From a virus, in IMG/VR virus record IMGVR_UViG_3300028833_000003: a DNA stretch of 64,000 nt; one strand, written 5' to 3'. Below are positions 1 through 40,042 of the stretch, in pieces. Position numbers and translations under genes: made by a program. The notes beneath the pieces were generated by a model. It saw only the letters and a list, made by a program, of their open reading frames with translations. It was not told the DNA's origin and did not search any database. The first letter of the stretch is position 1, and every line of letters starts with the position of its first letter.

Positions 1-9
1 TAAAGTCAT
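1..9 (-). CDS. first 3 codons of the next leftward gene (continues beyond the window)
   Basis: rc ATG at 7-9 lies 8 nt after rc AGGAGG (18-23), directly downstream of the TAA (40-42) of the giant tail gene. Confidence 0.3.
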
Positions 10-39
10 ATCCTTTTCCTCCTAAAAGTAGTTATAATA

Positions 40-3000
40 TTAACCTGCTGCTTCTGCTATACCATTAATTGAACCATTACATGTTCCATGTTCTGGGACA
101 GAAACTGAACATGCACCACTAACATGATGCGCATGTGATTTATTTGCTTTGTTACTAATATCGCTTTCAGTTTTAGTAACTCGTGTTTCAAGCGATGTTA
201 CACCTGATTTTATTTCTTGTGCAGTTTGAGCCGCGCTGTCTGCGGTTGATTTACTATCTTGCATCATGCTCCAGATGTCATTTTTAGTATGCTCTCCATC
301 AAATGATAAACCTTTGCCTATAATTTCATTTAATCCCTCTGGACCACCGGCAAGTGCCTAAATGACTTTTGTTAGATTACCCATACTACCATTTATTTTA
401 CTTGCCAATGATGAAATTTGTCCCGCTAAATCAGCCAATTTTTGATTAACATAATTTAATGATGCATAAATGCCATCTGGTCCATAACAACCTAAACCAG
501 CATAAACTTTCTAAGTAGCATTAACCCACTATGCTGCTAAATTCCACTTATATAATAAACCATAAATTTCAGTTGAATAATTAATTAAATTACTAGTTGG
601 TGTTAAAATGATATGCTATTTACGAGTTTCTTCACTATCACTCGCTGTTTCAGCATAAGAAATAACATTACCTTCATTATCGACATATTCTTTCCATCCT
701 GCTACGGCAGAAAAACCTAAATATTGATGGTCATGAGAAAGATTATGCGCTTTCATATATGAATTGTCAGTATTTAAAATAAAACGTAATTCAGAACCAT
801 ATAATACATAATTACCAGAAACAATCTTATCAGCATCAGTTAAAGTTATTTCAACACCTTCCGCGGTCGTACCAAGCCCTTGCTCTGTATCCCATGTTGT
901 TGGTAACTATGTGCGACCTAAAATTGCCATTAATACATCATTCTCAGAATAATCATATGTATGACTATCAAAACCATTACCTACTTGCTAACGAATTAAA
1001 CCAGCTGTAACTTTTGTAGTTCCACTACTATCTGAGGAATATGTCGTACCACTGTAACTACTTGGACCCAACGTTACTGCGCTTTTTTGATTCCATGTAA
1101 TATATTCAAATGGTCCGCTATAGTCCTGACTTGAAATTTTAAATCCGACCAATTCAATTTCACCATTATCATCATATACACCAATAGATACTCTATTTTG
1201 TTTACCATCTAATACCACATTATTATGATAAAGATTAATAGTACCAGATTGACCATTTAATTCAATAGCAGGATAATAATTCGTATCATAAATAGTTTCG
1301 CCCCATTCATCTTTTGCAGGCACCATTACTGGCTAATCATTTTCATCTACCATAGGCTGATTATTATCATCAACAGCCTATACCATATGCACTTCACGTT
1401 TCATACATTCGCCTAAACGAATTGTACCTTTTGTACCGTCAATTGCTATGTTATATCCACCGGTCTATACATAAGTCGGTCCATTAACATGTGGTTCAAT
1501 ATCAACGACATACGACTCTAATAAACCATTATGATAATACTCAAGAGGAATTTGTGTAGCATATACAATGTGTCCAGTTTCAGCATGTATCTCATATGGA
1601 ATATCTGGTAAATCAATACGCCGAAGCATACGATCGGCATAATGAAGAGTTGGATCATAATAAAATCCCATACGCGCAAATGTATTTTCTGCTCCACCAG
1701 CACCACTTTCTAACAAAATAGATTTATTAAGTAAAGCAAAATAAGGGTATTTAACGCCTGCGCTGCCGTTAATCATGCCTACATCTAATTCTGCAACAAA
1801 TGAATTAGATTCTGTACGAATATATTGTCCTAAAGAATTCTTTTTACGACGACCAGTTTCATCATAAACATAATCCTACAATCTTATTGTACTGTATAAT
1901 TTTGTATCTGTAAAACCCCAGCCACCAATAGTACCACTTTCAGCATATAAATCACCGTTATAATCTACACTAAAAGTGCCTCGATTCTATTTAGACATTG
2001 GTTGTCCTGCTGGACCACTCCAAATATAATAATTACCTACATCATCTGCATTATTTAAACTACTACTTGAATTTAAAGAAGCATAAACTAAATCAATTTC
2101 TTTTTCATGTTCTTTTAAATTGATAATTTCTCCATTATTTATATAAATAAACTTATATCTGTATTGCTCAATATAACCATCAGTATATAATATTTTATGT
2201 AAAGGAATCATTGTATTTAAATAATAGAAAATATTTGTTAAATTTTCTGGCTAGACCCATCTGCCTTCTTCTACTTGTACTTGCGCAACATCATCTCTAA
2301 ATAGTAGATAATTAGATTTTATTTCACCCTCAGCCTAGTGTGTTGCAATGGCAGGGAAGAAATGCTCTAATAATGTTGGTATTTCAGGATATTCATTTCG
2401 TAATATAATTAATAAATATTTATGAACATACTATAAAATTGACTCATATGTAATACCAATCTAAATACCACTAGTTAAAACTTGCGTCGTAGATCCATCT
2501 TGTAATGTAATAGAAGAAGTTAATAATTTATTAATTTCTGTTAATAAACTATGATCCTCACAAATCATGCCAAATTTACTTAAATTATCAGGCGCTAAAT
2601 AGATTTCTTTAATAAGATATAAATATAATTCTTCGGCAAATTCTCTATTAGTAGAAGTCTTATTTCCAACTCCTAGATATATTTTACTATTATTTTTTTT
2701 CTTTGTCAAGCCTGCGTCAGTAATCTACCAGCCGCCGATATCACCCCAACCAGCACGAATACCGCCGCTCATAAATACACCACGATGTGGATCAACAGCG
2801 AATACATCTTTAGTTTCTGCTATTGACAATAAATCATTCCAATTTACATTCGCTGCATTTATGTCGCTCTTTTCACTTTCAGTGTATAAAAAATAAGGGC
2901 TATATCCTTTTGATTTAATATCATATAAATTATCAGTAATTATATCAGTCTTTTTAGGATTTAAATTAATATAAGACGTCATGTTAGCGTTGCTAATAAT

Positions 3001-6000
3001 GCCAGCATGCTTATTAATATAAATACGTCCTGCGCCAGCAGCACCAAAAAATGCTTCACCGCTAGTTAATAATCCATATGTTTGTGCGCCAGCCTTAAAA
3101 CCATAAATACCAGGAGTATCAATACTACCATCGTTAATATCACTAGACCAATCACCCATCAACATACCAGTAAAGGCATTATTTGAATCTTTAGAGCCAA
3201 CGACAATACGTTTAGACAAAGATGTATTGTTATTATTATCAATGGTAATTTCTGTACCGCCCCAAGCATTTACTAATGAAGAACAATAAACTTGCCGTTC
3301 AAATACAATTGCTTGAGTAACCCAAGTACCATCACGCAATTTTACACTTAAATAAGCGTGTGCATCTCGTAATTTGTCTTCCCACTAAGTATTTTCACCA
3401 TCTACTAATAATAAAGAATAGGTAGTGCCCAATTCAGAATCATTAGCTTTAATGCGAATCCAATTATCTACATTTAAAGCATTCTCATAACTGCCAGTAT
3501 CTAAATTTATAAAATAATTAGTACCGATATTATTTACGATCATACCAACGCTTGTATTTAAAGCATCTGCAATACTATCTGCATCGCGATATTTGAAAGT
3601 TAAAGACCATACTGGAGCCATATCTAAAGTGACAGGAATATAACCTGTTTTCAATGATGCTTGATATTCATCAACAATTGCTTCTTTTACTTCACACTCA
3701 TGATCAATCAATGCACGTTGTTCAGTTACATAATTAAATCTTTGATCATTTTCTTCTGGTATTAACTCCGCATTTGCATCAATAACAGCATAACGCTAAC
3801 GCCGCCATGTCCAATTTGCATATTCTAAAGATGGATCAAATTCAGTGGCATATTCTGCGTCAGGCAAACGAATTGCTCTACGCAATTCAATTAAATTAGT
3901 AATAAACCCACGTGCATCATAAATAATTTGCTTACCAATAGATGCCGCCATCTCTTCTATATTAATATAAATATATCTATTATTATGATCTACAACTTCA
4001 AATGCACTTTTATCATAAGCTGGATTTGTACCAGATGAATTAAAAGCGATACGATTTGGACAAGAAATACTATAACTATTCACCTATAAATTATCTAATG
4101 CATCTACTGCTTTCCATACCTAAAATGGTACAGAATAATATAAGCTATAATTTTCTAATCCATCAACTCGCAATGTAATAATAGGCGGTACAATTGGCTA
4201 ATCTACTGTAAAGAAGTCCATTGATAATGGCTAAATATATAAAACACCAGAAGCATCAATATTAATCATATAATAATTGTCTTCTGTATTAGCATTTAAA
4301 CCAGAATTTAAATACCAATAAATCTAACACTTTGCACGTTCTTCATCAGATAGCGGTAATCCATTTTTCTTTCTGATATTAGCAATTAAATCATAATAAT
4401 AAGTACCTAACGAATCTTCTGCAGTGCCTTCTAAAGTAATCATATGATATTTATCTAATTTTAAAATTGGCGCATTAGTTAATTCATTACTATGATCTCT
4501 TACCATAATAGAGATATTATAATTACTACCCATCGTACTGGCATTACCAAAATGGAATTCGCGTTCGGCTATATAATTAACATTCCCATAATTGATATTT
4601 AATGCTAATCTATCTATTGGTCGCGCACTACTTAAAGAATACGAATCTTTAATTCTAAACTCTAATACAAATACTGTAGTTTCAGGCGCAAAATGAAATC
4701 CAAAACGTTCATTCACTTGCTCAGTAGTCATACGATGTAAATAATTAAACATCGTTGGTGAATCAGGATTAACTTCATTCGCAGTAATATCCATATTCCA
4801 ACTGATTGCATACGCTGCCGTTAAGTCATCAGCAATTTGCTAACGTACTGATGCAGTTAATTGTGTAATTAATTCTTCTTTCCCCAATGTAGCATAAGCA
4901 TCATCAAATGAAGTAATATTTAAATAAGCAGCTATAACTTTTTTATCCCAATCGTTTAAATAGCCTTGTGCTACTTCATCTGTTATTGTTGGATCATATG
5001 CTTTTAATTTTTCTAAGTAACTTGATTCTGTTGCAATTGCTTCACGAATAGGCTAATTATATTGTACAATACTATAATTAGCTTCTTCTTCAGAATCATC
5101 AGACCGCATCATCAAAAACGCATAATATGTAACGCTGTCATATGGGATTCCATCTGGATTTTCTATTGCGTGCCCGCGTTCATCAAAAACAAAAAATTCA
5201 GATATACTATCATCAGCTATAAATGATCCACCAAATAAATTTTCTGATGGTACTTTTTCATTTAAACTTTCGTATCGTGGTCTTACTAATTGTACTTTAA
5301 ATTTAGAATTTATGTCAGAAAATTGTTCTACTAAGTAATCAGTAGATTGATTTGTAAAAGTAACTTCATTACTAGTAATAAAAGTATTATCATATGAAGC
5401 AATCGCTTTAAATGTTTGTTTTGATTTTTTAGGATTTAAATCGACTTCTGCCAATGTAAATAATTCTTCTGGTTCATCTAATACATATTTAGCTGGTTCA
5501 TTAGTTTGTTCTTCAACAGTATAAATTTCTGATAAATACTAAAATTCTACTGCATTTAATGGTATAGCAGTATTACGATCTGCAGTGAATGGTAATGTAT
5601 CGCTTTCAATTAATACTAATTCATTACTATCGTTTCGTGTTACTAATTGATAATCAACTAAATTAATCCAATAGCCGTAAGGGTTATTGTTATCCAATTT
5701 ATCAGCAAAGTCTTGTATCTCTACTGCATTACCAAAATTTAACGTCCAACCTGCTATTTCATCATTCCAAGGCTATAAAATAGTCGGCGCATTACCAGTT
5801 CCGCCAGAAGTCAATGGTATATAATAATAAGCACCTACTTTTGGTTGTACAGAATGATCAAAACCATACATATTAGTTAATGTATAAATCATTGAATCAA
5901 ACTTCCAATAAGTAGGTAAATAACCAGGAGCTTCCACCGTAGAATCGTCACATTCAAAAATTGTCTGACCTAATTTAAATTGATATAATGGATGCAATAC

Positions 6001-6993
6001 CCAAGCATCAATATCTTTTACTGGATCAACTATATGCTCCTATCGTTCTATATGGCCAATATACTATACAACTGGCGCCCATTTTTCATTATCATTAATT
6101 AAAATTGATTTTAATTGTGCATAAGTCACAACTTTTGTAGCAGTTTTATCAATACTACCATCAGGTCGTATCGTATCATTTAATGGTTCCCATCCTAACC
6201 CAGCCTATTTATCAATAGTGCCGGTATAATCGGTATTTTTTCTGAACCATTTAATTTTATAACGCTAATTTAATAAATCTTTATATTGATTAATTAAATT
6301 ATATAAATCTTCCTACTACTAAATAGTTGTAATATCATCAAATAAATTCTCTGGATCATATAACATCTAATTAAAAATGTCTTTAAAAGCATTGCCATCC
6401 GCCCAATCTTCTTCAGTCATATCATCAAATAAAGTTAAACCATATTGATTATATAGGGCTTCCATACGATTATATAAATAAGTTAAATAATTCTTATTAA
6501 CTAAAATGCGCTCAGTGCGCTAAACTGCTTGAGCTTCTATTAATAATGCTTCTTCCATCATACGAGTTAGCTCTTGCAATTCATATGTTATTGCTTCTAA
6601 GCGAGCGATATAAGCTGCTAATTGTTCATTTGCATCTTCAATTTCTTCTTCTACATCTTGTCGTATTGCAGTAATGAAATCATTAAGCATTTGCGTACAA
6701 TTCTTTTTAAATTCTTCTTCTATATAAGTATATACATCTTTATCCTGTTGTTTAGCTTCTTCTTCTAAAACTTCACGCTCTTTGCCTTTTGTTCTATCAT
6801 AAATAACATATGCAGCATAACGAGCCGCTTGCTCTTTTGCTTCACGTATTGCACGATCGCGCGCCAAAGCCTAAGCAGACAATGACACTGACGAATAAAT
6901 AGTTTTTGCAGTTTTTTCAAAAGCGGTAGTATTAATACTTAAACCACCGCCACCAGCTTCTAACGGTACAGTAACAAAACTCAATAATCTCAC
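40..6993 (-). CDS. giant tail-tip/fibre protein (Tal position), 2317 codons with TAG read as sense
   Basis: 12 ORF-track fragments (40..267 to 6520..6867) share one frame. All interruptions checked are rc-TAG (358, 511, 529, 616, 907, 988, 6871). GTG 6991-6993 overlaps the upstream TGA (GTGA). True stop is TAA 40-42. Last gene after the tape measure. Confidence 0.75.
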
Positions 6994-9900
6994 CCCAATC
7001 TAGAGATGTCCCAAGACAACTTAATTTTTGCAGGTTGCCAAGCACTAAAAGTAAAATGTCGTTCTTCTTTTATTGGTTTTTGCATATACTCTGCTGCTTT
7101 TTGTCGTACTAATTCAGCAGCCAACTATTCTTGCATTTTACCATACTAATAAAAATCACGTGAGGTCGGTTTTTTTACTGTTGTCGTTGTAGTTTCATTC
7201 CCATCTGGATCAGTAGTAGTAACGGTAGTTGTGCTTTGTTGTTGCAATTTTTTTTCTTGTAATGCTATCTAATAATAGCAATATAATATCTATCGAATTA
7301 AAGTATTTACTAAAGAATCGCCTGTTCCAGTAATCATATAACCAGAAGCTACTGATGCGTGCTCTGCATCTTTGATAATTGATTTTCCTGGACATAAAGC
7401 ATATAATCTTAAAAAATGTAAATGCGCCGTACTATCAGGGTTAATTACCATATTAGGAGAAGTTTCATAAGAGCGCATTAAATAAGGATTTGCAATTTTA
7501 TTACAAAAAACATCATCAGTAGCAAACATGTCTTCTGTAAAAATAATTTCGTCTTCAAACTACATTAATTCATTAACAACCGCAGTGGATAAAATATCTA
7601 AATTATATTTTAATAATAAAGGATTATTAGTCTAATCAATCATAATTAACTGTTGTAATTTATCACTTAATTTTGAACGAGCTTCATCAATTTCTCTTTG
7701 TGTATATAATGTGATATTATTTAATACACTTAAATCAGCAATTGAGTCAATAGTTGCTAACTAATTTTCTAAGCTCGCTAATTTAGCATTTAAAGCATCA
7801 ACCGCAACAGTTATATTGTCTTGCTCTTCTGTTAATTCATTTTGTCTTGCGGTAATTTTTTCACGTTCTAACTAAATTGCTCTACGTTCATAAATAAGCC
7901 ATCTATTTACAACGTCAATAATAACTTTTTGTTTATTCGCGCGCGTAGCATCAAATGGAGTATTATATAACTCACGATAGCCTTCAATTAAAGCACTTAA
8001 ATCTTTTTCATCATCACGGCTATAAAATAATGCACGTTCAGTTGGCTATAATTCAATTAATGTTTGCGTTTCAGCATCCATCTCCCAAGAAGGGTAAATA
8101 TAAATACCGTTATTTACATCTGCTTTTACCCAAATAGCTTTTAAGTTACGAGTTTCAACTTGGTCTCTTAATTCTGCCCCACCTAAGCCATATTCAAGAG
8201 GTTCTTCAGTATATAAAATTAATTTTCCTTCTGCTAATTCCTAAACTGCAAAACCTAAACCTAAATATGGATTATGTAATGCTAATGTCTCTGGTACCGC
8301 AGCCTCGCAGCCTTCAATTAAGTCATCATAAGATTCATTACTTCTGACATATAAAATTGTTTCATCTACTCCAGGTAAAGCATATTTATATTCTACTGTC
8401 ATATTGCCTTCGGCAGACCATCCAGGAATTAAATTATTTGCTAAATCATAACTATCAAAATTCTAAAAAACAAATAATGTAATTTTACTAATTGAAATAT
8501 AGTCTTCAATATTTAATAATTTCTATTGAGAGTATGGAATAGTATAAGCATAACTATTACCAATAAATTCCGCATTTGTAAATTCGTCATCAAAAATAAT
8601 ATTATTTTCTTCATTAATAATGCCATATTCATTAGAACCGGTATCAATCAAATGAGCATCTAATTTACGCCATAAATCATCATAATGAATATCTAAACGA
8701 GTTAAAGCTAACTATTTATTATATTCATCATTGGCATATTGTTCTGTAATCGCCGCAACGTCAGCCGCATATTGTGCTTCTAATGCAGCTTTACGTTTAT
8801 TATATTCATCCGCAGTGTAAGTGCTTGTAGAAGATTCTTCATCAGTTGTTTTTTTAACGCCTTCGACCACAATTTTTACACCATAAGTACCTTTTAATCC
8901 AGGATATTGATTTAAGAATGATTCTACATCTATCTATAAACCAGCTTTAGTAAAACCTTCTATTGTTGCCGCGCCATTAGCAGGAACAAAAGAACATAAT
9001 TTAGTAAATAATTTACTGTAATGACCAGTTAAAACATCATAAAATTTTCTATTAGCCCAAAATTTATATGATACTTCTGGTCCGCCGCAAATAGGTGTTA
9101 TACGATATTCATTATAAATCTATTCTAAAGTACGTGTTTTTGCATATTTGGCTTTAAATTGTAGCCAAGCCTAAATGATATTATCACGTACTTCATCACT
9201 TACTCCTTCTGTTGTGACCATAGCAAGCATATCTGGATAAGCTAAGTCTCTCGTTAATTTTTTCCAATCAAACACTTTAGTATTTAATGATTCCCATTTA
9301 GAAGTTAAATTTGTAATAAAATTATTAATGCTAGCATACTAATGTGCAGCATTTTTAATTGTATGTAATGTGCCATTTTCTAAATAGTTATAATCAGCAT
9401 TATCATCTATATTCGTTGTATCAGAAAATTTTGCATATTCTTGTTGATAGTATGCGGATAATCTAGCATTATCTTCCTATAACCAAGCAATACATTGCTC
9501 GCGAGTGTTTTCTGTATAAGCCGGATCGGCTTCAATTGCACGTCCAACTTGCGCGACCAATATTTGTAATTCTGATAACGTATAATATGGTGCATGATTC
9601 TAACTCAAATTATTAACAGCATTAGTTAAAGCAGCATATTCGTGGTGTATGCAATCATAAATCGTATTCACATTATCAAAAGCGATAAAATTATTCATAC
9701 GCTATTGAATAATAGCAATTTTTTCTTCACGCATAGTTTCGATTATACGAGTACATTCATATGGAGTTATACCCCATACATATTCTTTATCTTGATTCTA
9801 CTCATAACGATGCTATTTTTTTAATTCAATATCTTCTTCTGCGTTGCCTAAAGCCGCTAAATCAGCAATATAAACAGGAACACAACCAGTTAATAAGCTA

Positions 9901-10259
9901 TATAAATCTTCAACCTCAAGCGCAGCAACCTAAACGAAATCATCAAAAGGCCATTTAAAATTATACGCCGCACTGCTACCTGTCATTAAACGACTTACAA
10001 TGCGTTTCTAATTGTCCCAATTATTCTATGGAACTAAAACTTGTACCTATTCGCCCGCGAAAAATGACTATTCTGAGTATGCTTCAAAACGAGTATTTTC
10101 ATATTCACAAGTGTAAATATTTTTATCCTCTTCCGAACGCGAAATGATAGTACAAGGCGAATAAGTTTTATCAAATTTTAAATCACTTAATGCTTTTTTA
10201 GTCAATAAATCAACTGCACTTAAAACGCCATTTGCAACACTATCATTAAAATTAGCCAT
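6990..10259 (-). CDS. large tail protein (distal-tail/Dit position), 1089 codons with TAG as sense
   Basis: ATG 10257-10259 lies 9 nt after AAAGGAG. Fragments 10068..10259 and 7290..7529 are in frame. In-frame stops checked are all TAG (7125, 7146, 7269, 7290, 7560, 7632, 7761). Real stop is TGA 6990-6992. Confidence 0.7.
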
Positions 10260-10301
10260 ATCTTCACACTCCTTTTACTCTATAACTCTATAACATAATG
10301 T

Positions 10302-10335
10302 AAAAAGGGCCGGATTCTTTAATAGAATCCGGCCC
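10302..10335 (-). terminator. rho-independent terminator/attenuator after the tape measure gene
   Basis: 11-bp stem GGGCCGGATTC/GAATCCGGCCC (10307-10317 / 10325-10335) followed by a T5 run on the minus strand. Confidence 0.7.
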
Positions 10336-10342
10336 TATATTT

Positions 10343-24600: not shown

Positions 24601-24662
24601 AATAACATCTCCTTTATCTCAATACTTATTTATAATATACCATATTTTTTTTATTTTGTCAA

Positions 24663-25922: not shown

Positions 25923-25957
25923 AAAAAAAATGGGGACGAGCTTTTTTGCTCGTCCCC
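25923..25957 (-). terminator. rho-independent terminator after the major tail protein gene
   Basis: 10-bp stem GGGGACGAGC/GCTCGTCCCC (25932-25957) followed by a T8 run on the minus strand. Confidence 0.75.
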
Positions 25958-25976
25958 ATTTGTATTATATCAATAA

Positions 25977-28365: not shown

Positions 28366-28382
28366 ATTAACTCCTCCTTTAA

Positions 28383-29348: not shown

Positions 29349-29661
29349 CTAACTAATTCGCTAAATCAGTTAATAGTGAAATTGCACTAAAAACTGTTTT
29401 GCGATATATCATAAAATCGGCTTCGTCAAGCAGACCATACAATTCAGTAACAAATACTAAAAAGTCTAATTCACCGCCAAATATTTTGTCTAACCCACGA
29501 AGTTCAAGTAATACAGTTTTAATCTATCCTTGCCAATCCTCTTGATTTTCACGCATCGGCAATAATTTCCAAATCTGATTGACCAGACGACGCAAATCGG
29601 TCACTACAACACCTGGTTCAAATTTGAACTCAGTTGTTTCTGATTGCTTCCCACTTGCCAT
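29332..29661 (-). CDS. small head-tail module protein (109 aa), tentative
   Basis: ATG 29659-29661 overlaps the end of the upstream gene. The frame stays open through two TAGs to TAA 29332-29334. It is below the ORF-track cutoff because of the TAGs. Confidence 0.35.
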
Positions 29662-30211
29662 AATCAATACCATTATCGCTATCTGCGTCGCCAGATCCTT
29701 CATGAATAATCTTAACAGTACCAGCTAATGCAGCTTCTTCTTGCTTTGGAATAGCACTATCATTAAGCATATGCCAATTAGACATAACATGTCCAGTTTC
29801 TGGTACAATTTTACGCCGCTTATATAAACGTTGTGCGTGAATATTCTCGCGCCACACCTCAGTCTTTAAATTTAAAAGCTTCGCAAGATGATTAGCTTGC
29901 GAAGTAAATTTAAAATCTGAACCGCTATATTTCATGCGTGTATTTTCAATAGAAGAAATCTGTCGGTCCAACCATACGACTTTCATTAAAATAGCGAAAA
30001 TATTAATTTCTTCTCTGGTTAAATCAACATTGTATTGCTCTTGATCTGCGTCATAATCATATAGAGCAAATCTTGGAAATTCAAAGTAGGATATGGCATC
30101 TAATAGAATCTATTTACAATCACGAATAGTATCTTCCTCAGTCAATTCCAAATACTAATCATCTGTAATTTTACCAAGGAAGGCATTATAAATAGTTTCA
30201 AATGATGTCAT
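29630..30211 (-). CDS. head-tail connector-position protein (193 aa)
   Basis: ATG 30209-30211 follows AAGGGGGA. In-frame TAGs at 30155 and 30110. Stop is TGA 29630-29632. Confidence 0.6.
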
Positions 30212-30212
30212 A

Positions 30213-30812
30213 TTACTCCCCCTTTGCCTCTTCTTTCTGCACTACTTTATACTGAGGAGTAGTGCGGCGACCACTAGTTTTAGTTTCGGCCTATACTCTA
30301 CGGGTAGGTGCAGCCTTTACTTCCATACCACTATCAGTAGTATTTGCTTCTTCAGCCTGCGCAGCTTCAACTTCTGCCTTATGCTGCAAAGCAAGCGTTA
30401 TATCAAAACCAGTCTTTGCTTTAAGAGCTTCGCGCTTACGCGCATCATTGCAAGGCAATTCATAAGAATATTTCTTGATTAAATCTATTACACCATCAGG
30501 CGCAAAATCAAGGCAATCAAGGAATGCTTCAACGCTACCATTTTGAATTAAATCAATAACGCCTTTTTCATCCAAATAATATTCAGGTTCAATCCGAATA
30601 GGCATTTCCTTCACTACTTCTGTATCTTCAATAAATAGACTATCACGAAGCATTACAGTACCACCTGGAACAAAACTTAAAGCATCCAACTCTTCACGAG
30701 TAAGATTTTTTACTTCGCCAGGCTACCATTCGCGGCGAATGCCCATATCTGGAATCGTATAAATAAGCATTCTACTACTGCGATTACGCACTTTAATTTT
30801 ATTGTCTGCCAT
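30213..30812 (-). CDS. structural-module protein (199 aa)
   Basis: ATG 30810-30812 follows AAGGAG. In-frame TAGs at 30723 and 30291. Stop is TAA 30213-30215. Confidence 0.65.
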
Positions 30813-30878: not shown

Positions 30879-31934
30879 TTAATCGCCCGTTTCATTTGCA
30901 GAACGTGTAACATTCAATTGACCTTTAAGAGCATCGTCGATATATACGCAGATGTCTGGAGTCATAACAACACCAACGCCTACTTTCTTATAGACCTGAA
31001 TTTCACGGCTGCGATCCTTATTGACATATTCATCAACAATAGTGCTACCTTCCATAACAACCTTGGCAGGCTTTACAGCACCTGGAAGAATATAGCAATA
31101 ACCTGGGTCAATAACCTTTGTCTGATGAGTTGCATCAGTGAAGCCCTGTGGAAGAATAGTAATAGGATGATTCTTATAAGAAGCAAAACGACCATTATTC
31201 CAAATAGTATCCTTCATATTGTCAGAATACATAGCAGCATTAGCAGGACGAATCTTAGAAGCAAATTCTTCAGTGCAATAAATGGTAGGAGTACCATAAG
31301 CTGCAGCGATAGAAATTAAACGATCAAATGCTGCTTCATCCCAACCAGTAACTTCAGCAGTATTAAGAGCTGGAAGCTGATTCAAACCAGTCTTCAAAGC
31401 CTGACCGATTTCCCAATAAATGAGTTCGTCAAGACCTTCCATAACAATACGAGTTACCTCAGCAAAATCAGCACGACCATCAAGGAACTCTTCCAAACCA
31501 ATCTGAGCGGCACCGCCGATAGCACTGGTCTGTACTTCGATAGGCGTATCTTTACCAAGCTTAAATACTTCGTAAATACCAGCCAAACCGACCTTGGTGA
31601 TGAACTGCTTTGCACGCTGACGATCATGCCAACGCATAAAGATAGCCTTGTCACCCTGAGCCATGGTCTTTACTTCGGCAAACTTGCCATATTCCTGCTC
31701 AACTTTACGAGGAAGAACATCATCCATGGTCTGTTCGATTAATTCAAAGATAGTATTCTTATTTTCACGATAAAGAGCAAAAGTGCCTGCATACTCATTG
31801 AGTTCTTTACGAAGGGTCTCATTGAGTGCATCATAGGTGAGATTCTCACCATTAAATGAATATGCAACAGGAGCAGAGCGATCGGCCTTAGCTGTTGCCT
31901 TCATCAATTGAAGAAGTTCTTTCTTATCCAACAT
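30879..31934 (-). CDS. major capsid protein (HK97-fold type), 351 aa
   Basis: ATG 31932-31934 lies 7 nt after AAAGGAGAG. Uninterrupted ORF with no TAG. Follows the portal, protease/scaffold and 249-aa genes. Size and sequence style fit capsid proteins (recollection, not searched). Confidence 0.7.
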   Translation of the reverse strand: MLDKKELLQLMKATAKADRSAPVAYSFNGENLTYDALNETLRKELNEYAGTFALYRENKNTIFELIEQTMDDVLPRKVEQEYGKFAEVKTMAQGDKAIFMRWHDRQRAKQFITKVGLAGIYEVFKLGKDTPIEVQTSAIGGAAQIGLEEFLDGRADFAEVTRIVMEGLDELIYWEIGQALKTGLNQLPALNTAEVTGWDEAAFDRLISIAAAYGTPTIYCTEEFASKIRPANAAMYSDNMKDTIWNNGRFASYKNHPITILPQGFTDATHQTKVIDPGYCYILPGAVKPAKVVMEGSTIVDEYVNKDRSREIQVYKKVGVGVVMTPDICVYIDDALKGQLNVTRSANETGD

Positions 31935-31954
31935 TGTCAATCTCTCCTTTCCTA

Positions 31955-32704
31955 TTACTGAAGTCTCATAATTTTAACAGCTGGTTGCATATCGCCAAGA
32001 TTATAAACCTTAACTACCTGCCATACCATACCAGCAGGAAGAGCAGGAGCATTTTCACCACTAGGAGCGGTAACCTTAACAAGATAACCATCTTCGCCTG
32101 GGGCCAAAAGATCACCACGAGCTAAAGAACCTGGATCTGCTTTAATGCAGTTAGTAGTAAAAATATCACCCTCATGAGTCTTAAAGAGACGAGGTACCAT
32201 AATACCCTGGGTATCAGTAAAGAGCTGTGGCTGATTTAATACTTCAACTTCATACTTGTTACCAATAGCAAAATGATTACGACCAAAATCTTCACCAGGA
32301 TAGGTTTCGGTATGTCCATCTGGATAAATCTCACTATTAGCACCAATAGTCTTCATCAAAGGATTAAGATCAACATTATTAGCACCGGTTACACCAACTG
32401 GGCTATAAACAGAGCCGGTATAGTCACGACGGATCATTGCGAAGTCCTGATCGGTTTCGCCCTTGGCATAAACCTTTACTTCGTTATAAACTAACATCCA
32501 CTCGCCCTTGCCGGTAAAATTGACTACATTATTAGCATAGTCATACTTTGCAAACTGACCATTCTCAAGAATCTTAATATTCTTAGCTGCTGGCAACTGT
32601 GCATAAATCTCGCCAGTGCGCTGTGCAGACAAATGGTTAGGTTCAACCTGACCGAAGCCATAAGTTACATAAGTGGCTACCGGTGAAAGTCTTTTAAAAG
32701 CCAT
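31955..32704 (-). CDS. head decoration/auxiliary capsid protein by position (249 aa)
   Basis: ATG follows AAAGGAGGA. No TAG. Lies between the scaffold-like and capsid genes. Confidence 0.45.
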   Translation of the reverse strand: MAFKRLSPVATYVTYGFGQVEPNHLSAQRTGEIYAQLPAAKNIKILENGQFAKYDYANNVVNFTGKGEWMLVYNEVKVYAKGETDQDFAMIRRDYTGSVYSPVGVTGANNVDLNPLMKTIGANSEIYPDGHTETYPGEDFGRNHFAIGNKYEVEVLNQPQLFTDTQGIMVPRLFKTHEGDIFTTNCIKADPGSLARGDLLAPGEDGYLVKVTAPSGENAPALPAGMVWQVVKVYNLGDMQPAVKIMRLQ

Positions 32705-32725
32705 TGTAGCTTCCTCCTTTATTTA

Positions 32726-34063
32726 TTACATATTTTTGGCGGTTTCGCGCACGGCCTTAATCCAGGCAGGAGCGTTATCTGACTCGCCCGTTTCATCTAA
32801 ATTGAAAGTGAAGTCTTTTTCAGGCTTCTTTTCAGTATCAAGGTCGAAACTTACCTTGTTACGAACACAAAGAATACATAATTTAGCTTCAATATCGTCC
32901 AAAGAATATTCATCAATCTTTGAAACTACATCAGCCTTATCGGCATCTGTAAGCATATAGAAACTATCAATCATGTCTTGCTTAGCCTTGCGATCGGCAT
33001 CAGCCTTGAACTTGCGCAATGGCTCAAGTTCAGCAGTAAGAGAATTTACCTGCTCTTGAAGAGAAGCGAACTGTGATTGAAGATCCTTGTAAAGTTCAGA
33101 CTCAGTAATCTCTTCATCAGAAAGAGAATGCTTGGTCTTTTTCTTCTTTTTATCTTCGTCTTCATCATCTTCTGGTTCAGACTTGTCATCCTCACCATCG
33201 CCTTTATCAGATGCGGGCTTGTCTTCTTCCTTCTTCTTTTCATCAGAAGGATCTTCGCCTTTATCTTCTGGCTTGTCCTCGTTTTCTTCCTCGTCCTTGG
33301 GCTTCTTCTTAAATTCAGTATCATCGTCCAAGGGGAGGTTCTCTTCAACAGGAGGATTTAATTTTTCATTCTCATTGTCCATGTGAGCATTTCCTCCTTT
33401 TTCCAGCATTGCTTTAATTTCCCCGACCATAGCATACATTGTCTGCTTAAAGTCATCATCTAGGGAGAATGTTGCAGCAATTCCGGCGCCTTCAAAGCAA
33501 GGTTCGCAATCCTCACCGAGAATGCAAAGTTTGGAAATTACTGCCTCATTGATTATAAAAAATTCAGGCCATCCATTATCGTCAAATGACCAATCTCCGT
33601 TAGTAAGACTTTCATCTAACTCCATTGATTGATTATTCCCATTTGTTAAAATACGCTTAGATTCTGGATATGCCCCAGTCCAAATCCACCCTTCGGTCAT
33701 TAGATACTCATGATCTACGCCATCATCAGTGAATGTTTGAAACCATACTTTTGCGTTCATATCTACAAATCCATAAGGACGTGTAGTATCAACAATTCTT
33801 ATGCCATCGCCACGAATTTCTAAGTTCTTATTATGCTGCTCAAAATCATCTTTGTTTTCATTATAAAAACCAACGATTGGGCAGCCCGGCAAAGACTTAG
33901 CCATTTCAGTCGCAACAGCCTTGGTGATAACACTACCATTGCGGTTAGGTTCATCACCCACATAACATACTTTAATTTCACAATGTGAAATTAAAGGATT
34001 AACGGGAGTAAAATTCAATAATGAAATTGTATTTTCCCGCGGTATGCTTATATGACGAGCCAT
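32726..34063 (-). CDS. prohead protease-like domain fused to an acidic linker and scaffold-like coiled coil (445 aa)
   Basis: ATG follows AAGGAGGGAG. The N-terminal ~210 aa resemble XkdF-type phage protease domains (recollection). There is a D/E/K low-complexity tract (33080-33330) and a helical C-terminus. No TAG. Confidence 0.55.
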   Translation of the reverse strand: MARHISIPRENTISLLNFTPVNPLISHCEIKVCYVGDEPNRNGSVITKAVATEMAKSLPGCPIVGFYNENKDDFEQHNKNLEIRGDGIRIVDTTRPYGFVDMNAKVWFQTFTDDGVDHEYLMTEGWIWTGAYPESKRILTNGNNQSMELDESLTNGDWSFDDNGWPEFFIINEAVISKLCILGEDCEPCFEGAGIAATFSLDDDFKQTMYAMVGEIKAMLEKGGNAHMDNENEKLNPPVEENLPLDDDTEFKKKPKDEEENEDKPEDKGEDPSDEKKKEEDKPASDKGDGEDDKSEPEDDEDEDKKKKKTKHSLSDEEITESELYKDLQSQFASLQEQVNSLTAELEPLRKFKADADRKAKQDMIDSFYMLTDADKADVVSKIDEYSLDDIEAKLCILCVRNKVSFDLDTEKKPEKDFTFNLDETGESDNAPAWIKAVRETAKNM

Positions 34064-34075: not shown

Positions 34076-35677
34076 TTAACCTTGTGAATTCTTATTAGCG
34101 ATAGTTTTATCTGATTTTTCACTATCAGCTTTTTCTGGTCGCCCACCTGTATTACTATCAGATTTGGCCGTTTTACTCTAACTTACTTCGCCCGCAGTTT
34201 TACCACTAGAACCAACTGCTTTACCAGACATAGTAGAAGACATCATTGGCGGTATCATAATATCAGACAAATGAAGTATCTCATTCTCGAAATGAGCAGT
34301 AGCTAAAATAGAACTCTGCCGTTGTCCCATAGCAACAAGAGGTAACATTTTAGAATAACCAATCTGCACTAATTCTTTATAGAATTTCGCAACTTCTTGG
34401 TAATTATAAATGGTAGTTTCTAACATATAGCTGCGGAAACTATACCGTTTATTTGGGGGACACTTTTTAGTTATCATTTTATTAAGGAAGGCTTCATACT
34501 GTAACAATAAGTTACGCATAGTGGCTTCATCGTTTAAAATAGATGATTGCAAAGCGATGTTTCCATCACTATTGAATAAATTTTGTGAAACACCAAATTC
34601 ATTATAGACTTGTCTCTCAATCTTCTCCAAACCATCCGCCGCGGCAGCAGTGCTATTTGAGTCAGCCATATCTGCAACATCAACGTCCGCAAAGGTAGTT
34701 AATACATCAACACCGACCGCACGTTTTAACATACTAACTGCATTATTATGAATATCACGTGCTTCATCAACGTCGAATATTAAATCACCATTTTTATCAA
34801 GAGGCAATTTCTAAATCAATACTTTTAATAACTATTGCATGGTCTTACGACGGTCTAAATCCTGCGCCTAGTCTAAATCAATTAATGTAGGAATAGAATT
34901 AACCAAAATTGGCATATCCGACCCATTTAAATTAAATTTAAACGCGGCAGCTGTATCCAACAAATACCAACCTTCACTATCACCAATGCCATCGCCCATT
35001 AGCTTATGCCGCTTATATAATAAATATCCTTCTTGGAAATCTTCTGGGAACATTTTCAAAATCTTCATACGATAAACCGCATCAGGAAATTTATCATCAA
35101 AGAAGCGCATATTAAATTCAATAGCCGGCATCCCAGCTTTAAAATAGCGACTGCGGCAATAATCAGTTGGTAGCTCTTGAATTGTCATACAGTCTTTGGT
35201 ATCAACCCAATAACCATAATAACAACCATCTCGAATAACCTTTAATGCAATATCGCCAAATACTTTTTTGAGATTAGAATTATCTAAATAAGTAAGTATT
35301 CGCGCAAATTCTGTCAGCACTTTATCTTCTTTTAATTTATCATCTTCGATAATATATGGCGTAACATAATAATCATAACGATAAAGGAAGGCGAAGTATT
35401 TACATAAACGTTCATAAATACCAGATATATCATAGAAATATTGTGATACTAAACGTTGAGTTGCATAATCTTTTTGCGCGAGTGCTTTTAAAATAAAATT
35501 CTTATCTGCATAAGTACGATTGTTTTTCTTTAATGAGCCAAGGTCCAATATAGCATCTTCCAAATTTTGTAAGCCGACTTTAATTTTACGGAAGTCTATA
35601 CTGTCATAATGAGGTGCGACAACTGGCTCAGACATAGAAAATCCTTTGGCTTTAATTTCATCCTAATTTCTTGGCAA
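34076..35677 (-). CDS. portal protein (about 533 aa)
   Basis: Fragments 34868..35635 and 34178..34807 are in frame, joined by TAGs. TTG 35675-35677 lies 8 nt after AAGGAGG; ATG 35635 is an alternative start. Stop is TAA 34076-34078. Sits between TerL and the protease/scaffold gene. Confidence 0.7.
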
Positions 35678-35690: not shown

Positions 35691-36047
35691 TTAGTATCCA
35701 GCTTTTTTCATAATATAATCATAACTTAACAAATGTTCTTCTGTATAAGGAATTTCTATTAATTTATATCCATTCAAAGCACAAAAACGTCGTTTTAAAT
35801 TATCATTATACTACTGTTGGAAAAATCCTTTTTTACCACCATATTTGGCAGAAGGCTAATAATGCTATTTTCCTTGATACTCTATTAAAAAATCTATTTC
35901 TCCATCATCATCAAATACACAAAAATCAAATTTTAATGGTCTTCCACTTGTACTTACTAATCCTGCAAATTGCTGCTCCATAGTAAAATTAGCATCAGCT
36001 GCTTCTAGGATTTCGCGGATAGTAATTTCTCCTCTACTTGCATTCAT
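35691..36047 (-). CDS. small nuclease-like protein (118 aa) between TerL and portal
   Basis: ATG follows GAGGGGAG. In-frame TAGs at 35865, 35856 and 35811. The segment DFCVFDDDGEIDFLIEYQGKQHY resembles a PD-(D/E)xK / Vsr-like core (motif only). Confidence 0.4.
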
Positions 36048-36051: not shown

Positions 36052-37788
36052 TTAACTCCCCTCAGTAAAAAACATCATATCACTAAGTCGCCCACGCTTA
36101 CGTTTTTTACTATCCTCTTCCTACTTAATGTAGTATAATCCGTATTCAAATGCTGAAAACTTATCCTTGCGGATAGTATTATTTGCACGCTTTAAAATGA
36201 TATTAACACCTTCATTTTCTTCGCGCAAATTCATCATTTCTTCTTTCAATATGGAAGTCAAAGTAAATGGTTTAAGATATTCTGCCCTTTCTTCGGGTTT
36301 CATCTCTTGTCCGCGTTTTGTTCCCATTAATTTATTTTTAGCAGCTCGCTCACTAATTAACATTTTTACACGCCCTGATGATAACTGAGTTTGTGCATTT
36401 GCGTGAGCCTCAGTGTTAATAGGCGCATTTGCTTTAATTAAATAAAGTGCATCATACTCGCAATTATTAGTTTGATACTTTTTATAATAATTATCTTCAT
36501 CATTATAAACACCAAAATCTGGGTATGTATCATTTGTGTCTGGATCTACTTGACCTTTAATCATATAATCGACTAGACCAATACCCAAACCGTTAGCATC
36601 AATTACTATACGCTTAGCTTTAAATTTATAATATAATTTCTTTAAATAAATTGCCTAATCTTCAAAGTGTTCATCTGACATTGTAAAAATATTTACTAAT
36701 GTTTTAATAGATGCGCCAGCACTTTGCGGCGTTACTTTAAATACACAAACAACAGAATCACAACCTTTGCGGCCAACATCAACAGAGAGTACATAATATG
36801 CTGTACTACGAGAACGTCCAGAATACTCATACTCTGGCTAATTTAATTTACGATTACGTTCAAATTGTTCGCTATTGAAGAAAGCATCTTCAACTGTGCC
36901 AGACCATTTAGACTCATACTCTCTATCAAAAGATGACTCATTAAATGTACCATCCATTTTTAAGTCTTTAATAAATGACTTAGAAAGCAAGCCCATGATA
37001 ACTGGGATGCGCCAGGTTCCGCCCATAATAAATGCTTTATCTGGGTCGATAATCTATTGTACCAATAGCGTCATCAACTTATCGTAAGCAAATGTATTCT
37101 TCCATCCTGCTGTTGTAATATATAATTGTGATTTATTTAAAGTTTCCTCTTCGCGCACCTCGCCGCTAGCGCAACGTCGCGCAACGTTCATTGTAGGAAT
37201 TATAACTTCGTTTAAGATTGTACCATCAACACCAACGCACTCTTCAACAACACCGGCATGACGACGCTTACCACGCGAGGTATCTCTTGCCGCAATATTG
37301 TCAAACCAAGAGCCATTGTAAAAAACGTATTTACAGTAGTCTTTGCCTTCCATTGTTTTTCCTCGGCGGAAATCAATTTCGTGCGCGAAAGCTGGTATTA
37401 ATGTACAAATTTCAGAAACTTTTTCTTTCATAATGCCGCTGGCCTGCTCTTTACCGCCAGAGGTAACGAATAAATGCGCACCTGGGTACAAGATACAACG
37501 AATAATAAGTATCATAACGGCTAAGAATGATTTAGAATAAGCACGAGGGAATACTGCATACACGTATTTTTTACGCATCGCCGCACGCATGAACACTCTT
37601 TGGTAATAAAATAACTAAAAATTATTAGGATTACCAAATTGTAGCATAAAATCTACAAATAAATCTGGGTATTCACGCCAAAAAGCAACATATTGGCGCG
37701 CGATGGGTATAATAGCCCTTACGCGCTCCTCAGATAATCCTATTTTATTTAAATCATTGCGCAAATTGAGTAAATCACTTAATGCCAT
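36052..37788 (-). CDS. terL: terminase large subunit (578 aa)
   Basis: Three ORF-track fragments (37054..37596, 36838..37026, 36121..36588) are in one frame, joined by TAGs. ATG 37786-37788 follows AGAGGTGG. ATPase- and nuclease-like halves are present. Stop is TAA 36052-36054. Confidence 0.8.
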
Positions 37789-37799: not shown

Positions 37800-38969
37800 T
37801 TATTCATCTGTAAGAGATTGCATCCACTCTGCATCCTCTTCCTCTTGTTCTTCAAGGAAGTCGAAGTGATTTTCAAAATCTTCGTCCTTTAATTCTTCCA
37901 AATCTTCAATATCAAGTTCTTCATCGTCATCATCATCAGTCGTTAAGTCGGCTTCATTAGCATTAGATTTCTAAATTTCAATAATAGCCTGCTCAATACG
38001 GTCGCCTAAGTGCATCTCTTCGCGCACCAAGGTATCTGTATATTTTTGCATGTCCTTTAATGTTTCATCAACGTGGTCTTTTGGACTATCAACATAATAT
38101 TTTGGAATAAAACCTTCCTGCTCGCAAATACGCACAAGCTCACCGACCGCATTTACATACTCGCCATTTTCATTTTTATTTTGCGCAGCAGTAAATTTAG
38201 CGGATTTCATTAACATGTCGTAGGTGCGCATTAGCTTTTGGAAGCCTTCAACATCGCCTAAGTCCAAAAGCTGATGCCCTTTAAGAGAGGTTTTACAAAT
38301 AAACTTTAATTGGTCGATGTGCGCTGGTGTCTAAATGTCGAACGCTTCCATCATATCAGAGTAGAATTGTTCTAACTACACCCACTCATGTGGTCGATAT
38401 GTTTTACCCCATTTAATAGATAGATATTTCTTATCTTCTTCTGTTAAATCATCCTAAAAATCATCTGGTGTTAATAAATCAATTGGGGCTGGCGCAGCTT
38501 CTTCTTGTTTCGCCTACGGGTTGGCCCACTCAGGCTTCTCAGGCTTAAAATCTTTTTTAAGTTCATCGTCGATTTGTAATCCATCATAGCCCTATTCTTT
38601 CATGGCCGCAATTTTTTGCTATTCCAGTTCGGCCTAAATCCTCTCAGTATCCGCCCAACGATAATCCTTAAATTGTTTGAGTTTCATCTTGGACAAATAA
38701 CGGCCCAAAATTGTAACACCGGTTACTTTATTGCGGTCTTTGCCATATTTTTCTAGTAGTGAGTTCCACTCTTGCGGGATATATGGAACGTCGCATTCTT
38801 CTAATATCCATAAGTAAGTCTATGGATCCCAGTTATCAACATGTCGTGTAATACACTTTTTACACTCAAAAAGCTTACCATCTTTCGGGTATTTATCTAA
38901 ACGGTATGATTGATAAAACTAATTGCCGTCCATGGTGCGGCCGCACGTTTTGCAATAATAATCTGCCAT
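37800..38969 (-). CDS. small-terminase-position protein with an N-terminal CxxC...CxxC zinc ribbon and acidic tail (389 aa)
   Basis: ATG 38967-38969. Ten in-frame TAGs by hand count (38919, 38820, 38634, 38619, 38592, 38514, 38454, 38376, 38331, 37971). Stop is TAA 37800-37802. Directly upstream of terL. Confidence 0.45.
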
Positions 38970-38971
38970 AA

Positions 38972-40042
38972 TTAAGTCGCCTTCTTTCGGTTCTTAGCGT
39001 TGCGGCACTCCTTGCAGATAGAATACCATCCATCTTTTGAAGTGTTATTTACCGAAAAATAACGTTGATGTGCTAACTTAATTTGCCCACAGCGACTACA
39101 CCGCTTCCACTTGCCCTTTTCCACGAACGTATAGTGCCACATCAAAAATTCATCTTGGGCGTATTGCGCGATGAGTTTAGGGATTTTATTGCGCCATAAA
39201 GACGAGATATATTCAACTGAGTGGGTGGTGCCGAATTCTTTTTCTAGTTGCGCCTTAATTTCTTCATTGGAGAAGTAAGACATTTTACATTCAGCGATGC
39301 GGCGATACATAGGAAATTTATCAAGAGCCGCCGCATAATAGCGGTCGAAATCCTAGATGGTCGCCCACAGGTCAGTTTGCATATGATCCCAAACTTTATC
39401 TTTAATTTTGTGATAGTTGCACATAATTGCGGAAATAACTTTGTAGTCACATAAAGAAATACCGCTCCAGCGCACCCCTTTTGTCTAAGGGTCAATCCAC
39501 TCATCAAAGGGCAGCGTAATTGGGAACCGAGTGCCACTATTCACATTCGTAAATTTAATGGGCGTCTTGTATGCGTTTTTGATTAAATACTAATCTTTCC
39601 GCATCTCGATCAATGTGCGCTTAATGATGTAAGCGTCACGCCCAGTTGCGACTTTCTACTTGGCTTCCCAGCGCTTTATTCCTTCTCTAAGTTCGCGCAA
39701 GAACGGTATTGTATCTACGTCTTCCTGAGTTATCATTACTTTTGGTTGAAAAATTACATTTTTATTATTTTCTACTAATAAATTATATACACCATCTTCG
39801 CCGTTCTCAAATTGCCCGACCAACCCCTCAAATGAGGTTTCGCGTTTAGTTATAGTTGCCATGCGGTTCTCGGTGAGGAGGCGGCGCTATTTGCGTTCTT
39901 CTTTTTCCATACAGAGAACTAGGTAATCGGCCAATGCTTCAAGATACTGCGGAGTTGGGTCTTCCACTTCGGAGAGTATCTATTCAACTAATTTTAAACG
40001 CTCTTCTGGAGCTTCAATAGTATAGTCTAATTTTGTTGCCAT
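38972..40042 (-). CDS. first gene of the leftward operon: putative DNA-binding/regulatory protein with a C-terminal zinc ribbon (356 aa)
   Basis: ATG 40040-40042 lies 9 nt after GAAAGGAG. Six in-frame TAGs (39980, 39887, 39656, 39590, 39485, 39353). HTH-like segment NEEIKAQLEKEFGTTHSVEYISSLW, then CSRC...CKEC. Stop is TAA 38972-38974. Confidence 0.4.

Follow-up and report, generated by a model that had tools for sequence, protein, structure and literature searches.

TAG as a probable glutamine codon in the late genes of a large siphovirus of the phAss-1/SPbeta-like group

We analysed a stretch of 64,000 nucleotides from the IMG/VR virus record IMGVR_UViG_3300028833_000003 (hereafter the window, meaning the whole stretch), which carries a leftward operon of virion genes that is whole only when the amber codon, TAG, is read as a sense codon. 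We conclude with high confidence that TAG encodes glutamine (Gln, Q) in this operon and that the source is a code-15 phage of the phAss-1/SPbeta-like group; UAA and UGA are the only terminators of this phage. The genome of the source, a large siphovirus, measures about 169 kb, with a virion module like that of SPbeta, Enterococcus phage EF1 and phAss-1. Amber recoding is confirmed here as a clear further example of an established phenomenon. It has reportedly been described, with Gln as the inserted residue, in gut phages since 2014. For the phAss-1 group, amber recoding was described in 2023 (PMC10607447).

TAG as a sense codon in the leftward operon

An earlier note, drawn from the letters of the window, had claimed that the leftward morphogenesis operon exists only under a reassigned code, and coverage by open reading frames (ORFs) bears this out. 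We freed each stop codon in turn and, for the minus strand of positions 1-40057, considered ORFs of 100 codons or more. With TAG as sense, coverage rose from the 46.6% of the standard code to 99.3%, compared with 48.9% for TGA and 52.8% for TAA; the TGA-sense and TAA-sense readings, which gain almost no ORF coverage, were rejected. Minus-strand ORFs of this size total 33.8 kb under the standard code and 65.1 kb with TAG as sense, the longest then being 4559 codons. Read in this way, the minus strand from 40042 down to 40 consists of 20 contiguous genes, g20 to g01 (13,165 codons; the late set modelled here). Their ORFs include ones of 4559, 2326 and 1094 codons, and AGGAG-type ribosome-binding sites precede the start codons of nearly all of them.

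In frame, these late genes hold 229 TAG and not a single TAA or TGA, whereas the same strand read out of frame holds 557 TAG, 1144 TAA and 1087 TGA. TAG therefore acts as an ordinary sense triplet, and TAA and TGA act as stops. The absence of in-frame TAA and TGA, which had been noticed in parts of the long ORFs, thus extends to all 20 late genes. At gene ends the picture is reversed: among the 67 genes tabulated in the window, 47 end in TAA, 20 in TGA and none in TAG, and one more gene ends in TAA. TAG makes up 10.7% of long-ORF stops in standard-code relatives, hence the probability of finding none among 67 is 5e-4. The assertion that no gene terminates with TAG, originally made for about 75 genes, holds for every one of the 67.

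The pattern of broken ORFs under the standard code was also as described. Taking fragments of at least 60 codons, 31 of the 33 between 10343 and 24022 lie in one frame and 32 end at TAG, in line with the single frame proposed for 10454-23113; 15 of the 16 between 40 and 7020 likewise share a frame, with 15 ending at TAG (the proposal covered 40-6867). The large terminase (TerL) fragments, five by our tally, share one frame, and so do the two portal fragments. The reported densities of TAG proved exact: 19 in the first 381 tape-measure codons, 14 in the codons covering 11461-13156, and 10 in the 389-codon gene that precedes terL. Homology crosses the TAG positions: alignments of the TerL, portal, tape-measure, neck-gene and other virion proteins with standard-code homologs pass through them uninterrupted. 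The proposed morphogenesis gene order is also found in relatives with the standard code, Enterococcus phage VRE9_4 among them.

The window has a G+C content of 37%. Through its TAG-free gene g15 we found the 168,974 bp ENA contig ERZ27257202:k141_292341, of which 21.3 kb were fetched and are 100% identical to the window; the window corresponds to positions 15,494-79,493 of this record in reverse orientation. A JGI contig over 8.7 kb and a Logan contig over 4.7 kb are also 100% identical to it, and the agreement of the ENA, JGI and Logan assemblies argues that the sequence is no assembly artefact. The gene calls stored on the ENA contig already span TAG (356, 389, 578, 118, 519, 445 ... 4508, 1089 and 2216 aa) and agree with our models, so that a public read-through caller handles the contig correctly. 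Standard-code pipelines shatter such genes: in the JGI copy, which was called with the standard code, the 2216-aa tail protein appears as fragments of 46-204 aa.

Relatives of this phage are found in three code states. We retrieved 80 IMG/VR relatives with the capsid protein (49-85% identical to g13), among which 29 are TAG-recoded, 20 TGA-recoded and 31 standard. They come from other JGI samples, which we take to be of rumen origin. Within homologous alignments, 1144 TAG and 21 other stops were counted in the TAG class, and 370 TGA and 2 other stops in the TGA class, where TGA stands opposite a Trp of the window at 70% of positions.

Uneven use of TAG and a possible translational gate

TAG is far from evenly used. 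It makes up 32% of the Gln-type codons of the late genes, with 229 TAG against 481 CAA and CAG together, compared with 1 against 146 in the rightward, presumed early genes (Fisher p=5e-21). Within the late set, four of the 20 genes carry no TAG at all: the tail tube gene g06, the capsid gene g13, and g14 and g15. The ratio of CAG to CAA is 9:2 in the tube, 12:2 in the capsid and 10:1 in g14, as in early genes, and the other late genes use CAA and TAG. The same genes are spared in relatives: g13 and g14 lack recoded stops in 28 of the 29 TAG-recoded relatives, and the tube is stop-free in 21 of 23. In TAG- and TGA-recoded relatives alike, the capsid, g14, g12 and tube genes are nearly always free of recoded stops, which are plentiful in g07, the tape measure, the endonuclease, the portal, g10 and g11. 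We conclude that the most-copied virion proteins, capsid and tube, avoid TAG.

Such a distribution fits the proposal of Borges et al. that recoding gates or times the translation of virion genes. After infection, the rightward early genes would be translated with the host's standard code; the phage tRNA array would then supply a Gln-accepting amber suppressor, tRNA(CUA), and only afterwards could the late operon be translated at full length. This would include g20, a sigma-like protein whose gene holds six TAG and has a host-type promoter match in front of it; such a gene may be transcribed by the host RNA polymerase and gated at translation. The highest-copy proteins would be expected to avoid TAG, because suppression would compete with the host release factor RF1 and be less than fully efficient. 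By analogy with other recoded phages, we regard gating through a phage-encoded suppressor as the somewhat more probable course of events.

The host is probably a member of the Bacillota, as suggested by AGGAGG ribosome-binding sites, by homology to phages of Enterococcus, Bacillus and Geobacillus, and by the binning of relatives into metagenome-assembled genomes (MAGs). The MAGs in question belong to Lachnospiraceae, Bacilli, Erysipelotrichaceae and Clostridia, and such binning is weak evidence.

Several points weigh against reading TAG as Gln behind a gate of this kind. The tRNA search covered record positions 1-89,454, or 53% of the 168,974 bp contig, and found no tRNA(CUA); a relaxed search for the suppressor's anticodon arm in the window and both flanks returned nothing. 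Pfam scans of the early-region and array-flanking proteins gave no release factor and no aminoacyl-tRNA synthetase, only weak helix-turn-helix (HTH) and peptidase matches. The terms early and late were themselves assigned from gene content and orientation. The G+C content at third codon positions (GC3) is about 0.17 in tail genes, about 0.30-0.35 in capsid genes and 0.37 in early genes, a split in composition that runs parallel to that between early and late. MAG binning of relatives and the type of ribosome-binding site do no more than suggest a Bacillota host. Finally, code 15 has been proven by metaproteomics in crAss-like phages (Peters et al., 2022; PMC9523058), and peptide proof of Gln at TAG exists only for that group.

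An alternative is a phage in which TAG is sense throughout infection with no temporal switch, read either by the host itself or by a suppressor that is present at all times; uneven use of TAG would then reflect only expression level and codon bias. In its favour, early and late genes alike never stop at TAG, and the whole genome fits a single code. The TAG-free late genes prefer CAG as the early genes do, so that codon optimisation alone could suffice; composition differs between the gene classes, and a few genes of the rightward block and the tRNA array do carry TAG. However, TAG ends in G just as the early-preferred CAG does, and composition alone should therefore not deplete it, yet a single TAG is found among the Gln-type codons of the early genes. 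Nor is any member of the Bacillota known to read UAG as Gln. Restriction to late genes has moreover been reported in many independent clades of recoded phages with standard-code hosts (Borges et al., 10.1101/2021.08.26.457843). We consider the absence of a switch distinctly unlikely.

The inserted amino acid and its suppressor tRNA

To read the residue from homologs, the read-through proteins, with X at TAG, were aligned by tblastn with the virion regions of three cultured standard-code phages, Enterococcus VRE9_4, Geobacillus E3 and Alicyclobacillus KKP_3916. Q stands opposite TAG at 20 of 107 positions (18.7%) against a background of 4.5% (binomial p=7e-8), close to the 23.7% at which the window's own CAA and CAG codons align with Q. 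An empirical substitution model derived from these alignments places Q first, about 16 nats over K and about 46 over S. Conserved columns agree: all three phages have Q at TerL position 378, Q also occupies portal position 289, and two TAG of the endonuclease stand opposite Q. Across the 31 standard-code IMG/VR relatives, Q lies opposite the window's TAG at 390 of 1433 positions (27%), and the TAG of the TAG-recoded relatives lie opposite a window Q (28%) or a window TAG (20%). The enrichment of Q in both the cultured and the IMG/VR sets makes the assignment that of code 15.

Of special interest is the tRNA that would read these codons. The window contains no tRNA gene. An array of at least 23 tRNA genes (22 complete and one cut) starts 6.4 kb to its right and runs to the end of the contig, at record positions 1-9075 (8931-18005 in our copy of the locus); small ORFs are interspersed in it, of which one of 179 aa and one of 140 aa carry one TAG each. 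The ENA contig breaks within tRNA-Gly(GCC), after 52 nt of that gene. At the other end, the leftward 10 kb of the contig and 20 kb of a sister strain contain no tRNA, just TAG-rich tail genes, and the arrays retrieved with the 179-aa array gene contain no suppressor.

An exact scan for the tRNA at the contig end gave no match in IMG/VR and GTDB genomes and matched three JGI contigs. The JGI contig L012 has an identical 5' part of the Gly(GCC) gene and, about 1.7 kb downstream and after tRNA-Met, a 93-nt tRNA(CUA). Another JGI contig, L013, comes from the same sample as a contig that is 100% identical to the window and, over 2.7 kb, itself matches the source contig at 100% identity; it keeps the order Gly(GCC)-ORF-Met and ends 5 nt before the point at which the suppressor starts in a 149 kb relative. 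This relative (IMG/VR 3300028833_000076, locus L030; major capsid protein 82% identical to g13) has its tRNA(CUA) 309 nt past the Gly(GCC)-ORF-Met series, and a 166 kb relative (IMG/VR 3300021255_000108; major capsid protein also 82% identical) carries a tRNA(CUA) as well. The suppressor of the relatives lies 1.1-1.7 kb past the 3' end of tRNA-Gly(GCC). The ENA assembly of 168,974 bp and the JGI assembly of 168,960 bp appear to stop at one and the same point, so both probably break in or near a conserved tRNA block. Synteny and the two close relatives make a position of the suppressor just beyond the end of the contig the most likely one; a phage without a suppressor of its own, dependent on another source, is less likely. 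In L013, which represents a near-identical strain, the tRNA array is rearranged.

The suppressor of this lineage is 88-95 nt long; its D arm is of class-I type, it carries G73, and its 1:72 pair is weak or mismatched. The L012 suppressor and phAss-1 SupA have in common a 20-nt anticodon-arm stretch (CCGGTCTCTAAAACCGTTAT) and a near-identical extra arm. This arm is an additional hairpin of 4-5 bp in the variable region (…CCTCTGAAGGAGG…) with a Shine-Dalgarno-like GGAGG. A cloverleaf with the extra helix was found in 28 distinct IMG/VR sequences, in which two helix pairs have changed on both sides; the set was chosen by an exact 16-nt anticodon arm and is biased accordingly. The extra arm may serve in competing with RF1, in evading host tRNA surveillance, or in recognition by a phage factor. 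The genes beside the suppressor vary among relatives (L012 343-2100 on the minus strand; L030 5125-5565 on the plus strand). One neighbour is a 581-aa protein with a YcaO-like motif, seen by eye only; those in another relative are a GIY-YIG endonuclease-like gene and a 344-aa glycosyltransferase-like ORF (both by eye) and a peptidyl-tRNA hydrolase of the PTH2 family, so named in the source record.

That TAG is read through as a residue other than Gln, namely Glu, Lys, Ser or pyrrolysine, appears very improbable. E and K are the next commonest residues opposite TAG, the long variable arm of the suppressor is of the kind seen in Ser, Leu and Tyr tRNAs, similarity of the suppressor to the phage's own tRNAs fails to single out Gln, and ARAGORN names CUA tRNAs 'tRNA-Pyl'. 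The last of these is merely ARAGORN's name for a CUA anticodon, and pyrrolysine decoding was rejected, because TAG aligns with Gln and, with 17 TAG per 1000 codons, spread over 16 of the 20 late genes and found at variable surface positions, its use is unlike that of pyrrolysine. Opposite TAG, Q lies about 4- to 6-fold above background, whereas Ser is at background level. G73 and a weak 1:72 pair, both present in the suppressor, are identity features for E. coli glutaminyl-tRNA synthetase (GlnRS). The isotype call made with tRNAscan-SE by the authors of phAss-1 for its suppressor is also Gln (PMC10607447).

Decay of a dead prophage, mis-assembly or mis-sequencing, with TAG a true stop, would explain the dozens of broken ORFs under the standard code, as called by the JGI pipeline, but pseudogenisation and artefact alike are effectively refuted by the lack of in-frame TAA and TGA, each of which occurs more than 1000 times out of frame, by three independent assemblies that are 100% identical, and by the same TAG-only pattern in 29 related contigs.

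Relatives and gene content of the window

The reading of TAG as Gln places this phage beside phAss-1 (Babkin et al., 2023; PMC10607447; GenBank OQ749652), a 136 kb siphovirus related to Enterococcus phage EF1 that NCBI lists in the 'Caudoviricetes code 15 clade'. In phAss-1, TAG=Gln occurs in the TerL, portal, tape measure and tail genes and the capsid gene is unrecoded; the genome encodes 36 tRNAs, three of them Sup-CTA tRNAs, and a 3149-aa tape measure (PMC10607447). Both phages have co-ordered virion genes, a large tRNA set, TAG=Gln and an unrecoded capsid, and their portal, TerL and major capsid proteins are 41-50% identical. They differ in genome size (about 169 kb here), in the tape measure (about 4500 aa here) and in the suppressors: phAss-1 has two adjacent ones, one long and one short, beside nrdD, whereas this lineage has a single long-arm one in the tRNA array. 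A megablast of a phage collection gave no nucleotide match to phAss-1, which argues for a different genus or a higher rank, and the phage falls outside the proposed genus Phassvirus, members of which share about 80-86% nucleotide identity. The features that define the phAss-1/EF1/SPbeta-like group, with TerL, portal, capsid and tube co-ordered and a tape measure of more than 2500 aa, are all present.

Standard-code phages with a matching virion module and order are Enterococcus VRE9_4, H1 and EF1, Geobacillus E3, Alicyclobacillus KKP_3916 and SPbeta-type Bacillus phages. VRE9_4, for example, has TerL, a homing endonuclease, the portal, capsid genes, the tube, a 2673-aa tape measure, tail proteins and a 2572-aa protein in that order. 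In these relatives TAG is an ordinary stop, ending 4-5 of about 30 long ORFs per locus and never occurring in frame.

Recoding of this kind has been surveyed by Borges et al. (10.1101/2021.08.26.457843; Nat Microbiol 2022), who found that recoded stops concentrate in structural and lysis genes and that suppressor tRNAs are carried. Their clades infect Firmicutes in cattle, pig and human guts and include relatives that are standard, TGA-recoded or TAG-recoded; the list of clade sizes in the preprint, in which one value is missing, ends with 154 +/- 27 kb, apparently for the clade Agate. Our phage resembles Agate in genome size, likely host phylum and mixed codes among relatives, traits that are compatible with membership of that clade. 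Two TAG-recoded Agate phages have RF2, whereas no RF2 gene was seen in the parts of this genome that were read. The phage of the window also resembles crAss-like phages and Lak phages in using TAG as Gln in late genes in standard-code hosts, but these are unrelated virion lineages with Bacteroidota hosts, the former being podovirus-like Crassvirales and the latter about 540 kb in size. Code-15 crAss-like phages and Lak megaphages are said to have been treated by Ivanova in 2014.

The window offers a clean case of the partition of a recoded stop codon between early and late genes, joined to its avoidance in high-copy genes of TAG- and TGA-recoded relatives. Relatives in three code states also suit the study of change in the genetic code. 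Three minor points were without description in the open-access literature searched, which for the first was the literature on recoding: the extra helix in the variable region of the suppressor, a tape measure of about 4500 codons, and avoidance by capsid and tube across both recoded classes. We consider it possible, at low probability, that the suppressor is a distinct Gln-like tRNA with a conserved extra GGAGG helix and also that the module has switched among three codes. If true, switching of one module among standard, TAG=Gln and TGA=Trp within 50-85% capsid identity would be a natural system for the evolution of code switches.

The features of the window, with the suppressor of the lineage, are collected in Table 1.

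Table 1. Coordinates, strand and TAG content of the features of the window and of the lineage suppressor tRNA
Feature	Position	Strand	Description
20 late genes, g01 to g20	40-40042	-	229 TAG in 13,165 codons, 17.4 per 1000; CAA 400, CAG 81
g20, first late-operon gene	38972..40042	-	356 aa, sigma-factor-like, C-terminal Zn-finger; PHROG 5767 'sigma factor', E=1.2e-46
g19, TerS position (function putative)	37800..38969	-	389 aa, 10 TAG; precomputed Pfam YonG_N; PHROG 3314
g18, large terminase	36052..37788	-	578 aa, 5 TAG
g17, homing endonuclease between TerL and portal	35691..36047	-	118 aa, 3 TAG; PHROG 9084, E=4e-24
g16, portal	34076..35677	-	519 aa (ATG 35635) or 533 aa (TTG 35677); 4-5 TAG
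g15, g14, g13	30879..34063	-	445 aa (acidic, YonD_N), 249 aa, 351 aa (major capsid protein); no TAG in any
g12-g07, head-completion/neck/tail-terminator positions	27077..30812	-	six genes with 2, 2, 2, 3, 6 and 9 TAG
g06, tail tube	25977..27059	-	360 aa, no TAG; Pfam YomU_Tube; PHROG 2729 virion structural protein, E=5e-58
g05, g04	24076..25904	-	413 aa with 8 TAG; 174 aa with 2 TAG (chaperone position)
g03, tape measure	10343..24001	-	4552 codons (GTG 24001) or 4508 (ATG 23869); 103 TAG
g02, distal-tail position (function putative)	6990..10259	-	1089 aa, 27 TAG; public call also 1089 aa
g01, large tail or baseplate protein	40..6993	-	2216-2317 aa, 37 TAG; exact 2216-aa product on record for the 168,974 bp contig
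Divergent intergenic region	40043..40145	both	border of TAG-rich late and TAG-free early genes
Rightward block, presumed early	40146..63955	+	about 43 genes, mostly small; 1 in-frame TAG in 4,925 codons, 0.2 per 1000; CAA 51, CAG 95
Leftward island in rightward block	56339..59156	-	five genes, from public gene calls; 10 TAG in 724 codons, 13.8 per 1000; CAA 11, CAG 7
Amber suppressor tRNA(CUA) of the lineage	L012 2111-2203 (-); L030 1810-1901 (+); L126 3304-3398 (+); phAss-1 L002 44442-44532 (-)		

The precomputed Pfam names on the ENA gene calls are of SPbeta type (YonG_N, YonD_N, YonB, YomW, YomV, YomU_Tube, YomO), along with PhageMin_Tail. Our own Pfam scan of ten virion proteins gave no matches, the precomputed Yon and Yom families included, and a PDB sequence search with the capsid and tube proteins found nothing. 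The labels TerS, protease/scaffold, Dit and Tal are positional guesses only. The first late gene, g20, has an AGGAG ribosome-binding site, and the first of its TAG is codon 21. Homologs of the next gene, g19, precede TerL in Geobacillus E3 and phAss-1.

TerL (g18) matched 147 records in a tblastn search of GenBank phages. Its identity to TerL of Enterococcus, Geobacillus and Alicyclobacillus phages is 46-48%; the alignments take in 95-97% of the protein, and each covers all five TAG without a break (one high-scoring segment pair, residues 4-574). The best cultured matches are Enterococcus VRE9_4 and H1 (47.8%), Geobacillus E3 (47.6%) and Alicyclobacillus KKP_3916 (45.7%), with SPbeta-type Bacillus phages matched too. 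Identity to 'Phage Phass-1' is 43%, and its TerL region lies under three separate coding sequences annotated 'hypothetical protein'. Our TerL also matches two separate half-length PHROG families, which may derive from fragmented gene calls.

The endonuclease g17 is 50% identical to the VRE9_4 gene at the same place, where Q stands opposite two of its three TAG; carrying these TAG, this mobile gene shares the code of the phage. The portal matches PHROG 2739 'portal' (E=9e-88) over residues 58-532 in one stretch, and tblastn matches it to VRE9_4, KKP_3916 and phAss-1. In the g15-g13 block, with YonB and YonD_N among the precomputed Pfam matches, g13 is 50% identical to the phAss-1 ORF at 38085-39119, which its authors annotate as major capsid protein without marking it as recoded. 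Homologs of g12-g07 are co-ordered in VRE9_4, E3 and phAss-1, with the Pfam families YomW and YomV_2nd. A terminator scan found a strong terminator-like hairpin after g06, at 25928-25961. The g05/g04 block has a weak Pfam YomO match, and the homolog of g04 in VRE9_4 is the gene that precedes the tape measure there.

The tape measure, g03, is recognised by Pfam PhageMin_Tail on the 4508-aa public gene call. Against that of VRE9_4, only residues 16-493 and 3586-4548 align in tblastn, and these cover 34 TAG positions. At 4508-4552 codons, against 2673 aa in VRE9_4 and 3149 aa in phAss-1, it implies an exceptionally long tail by the usual tape-measure length rule. A small 72-nt tandem repeat lies within it at 17809-18037. 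A homolog search with the 2317-aa form of the tail protein g01 left 0 passing among 8000 short-word candidates scored. The late operon runs on past position 1, for 10 kb or more in this contig and for 20 kb or more in the sister strain: beyond the left edge lie genes of 936 and 794 aa with 15 and 16 TAG, and in the sister strain a 2673-aa gene with 14.

Between the two gene blocks lie near-consensus sigma-70-type matches, identified by consensus only, one on the minus strand facing g20 (40096-40068, TTGACT-17-TATAAT) and one on the plus strand facing the early genes (40105-40133, TTGACA-17-TAAAAT). The rightward genes all end in TAA or TGA and therefore read the same under either code. Among them is a 600-aa cysteine-rich protein with many CxxC motifs (62153-63955, plus strand), which had no match in a Pfam search and has a 576-codon shadow ORF on the opposite strand. 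The leftward island includes a 201-aa double-HTH-like protein (58193-58798), for which the HTH matches are weak; with seven TAG, its gene is the most TAG-dense in the window.

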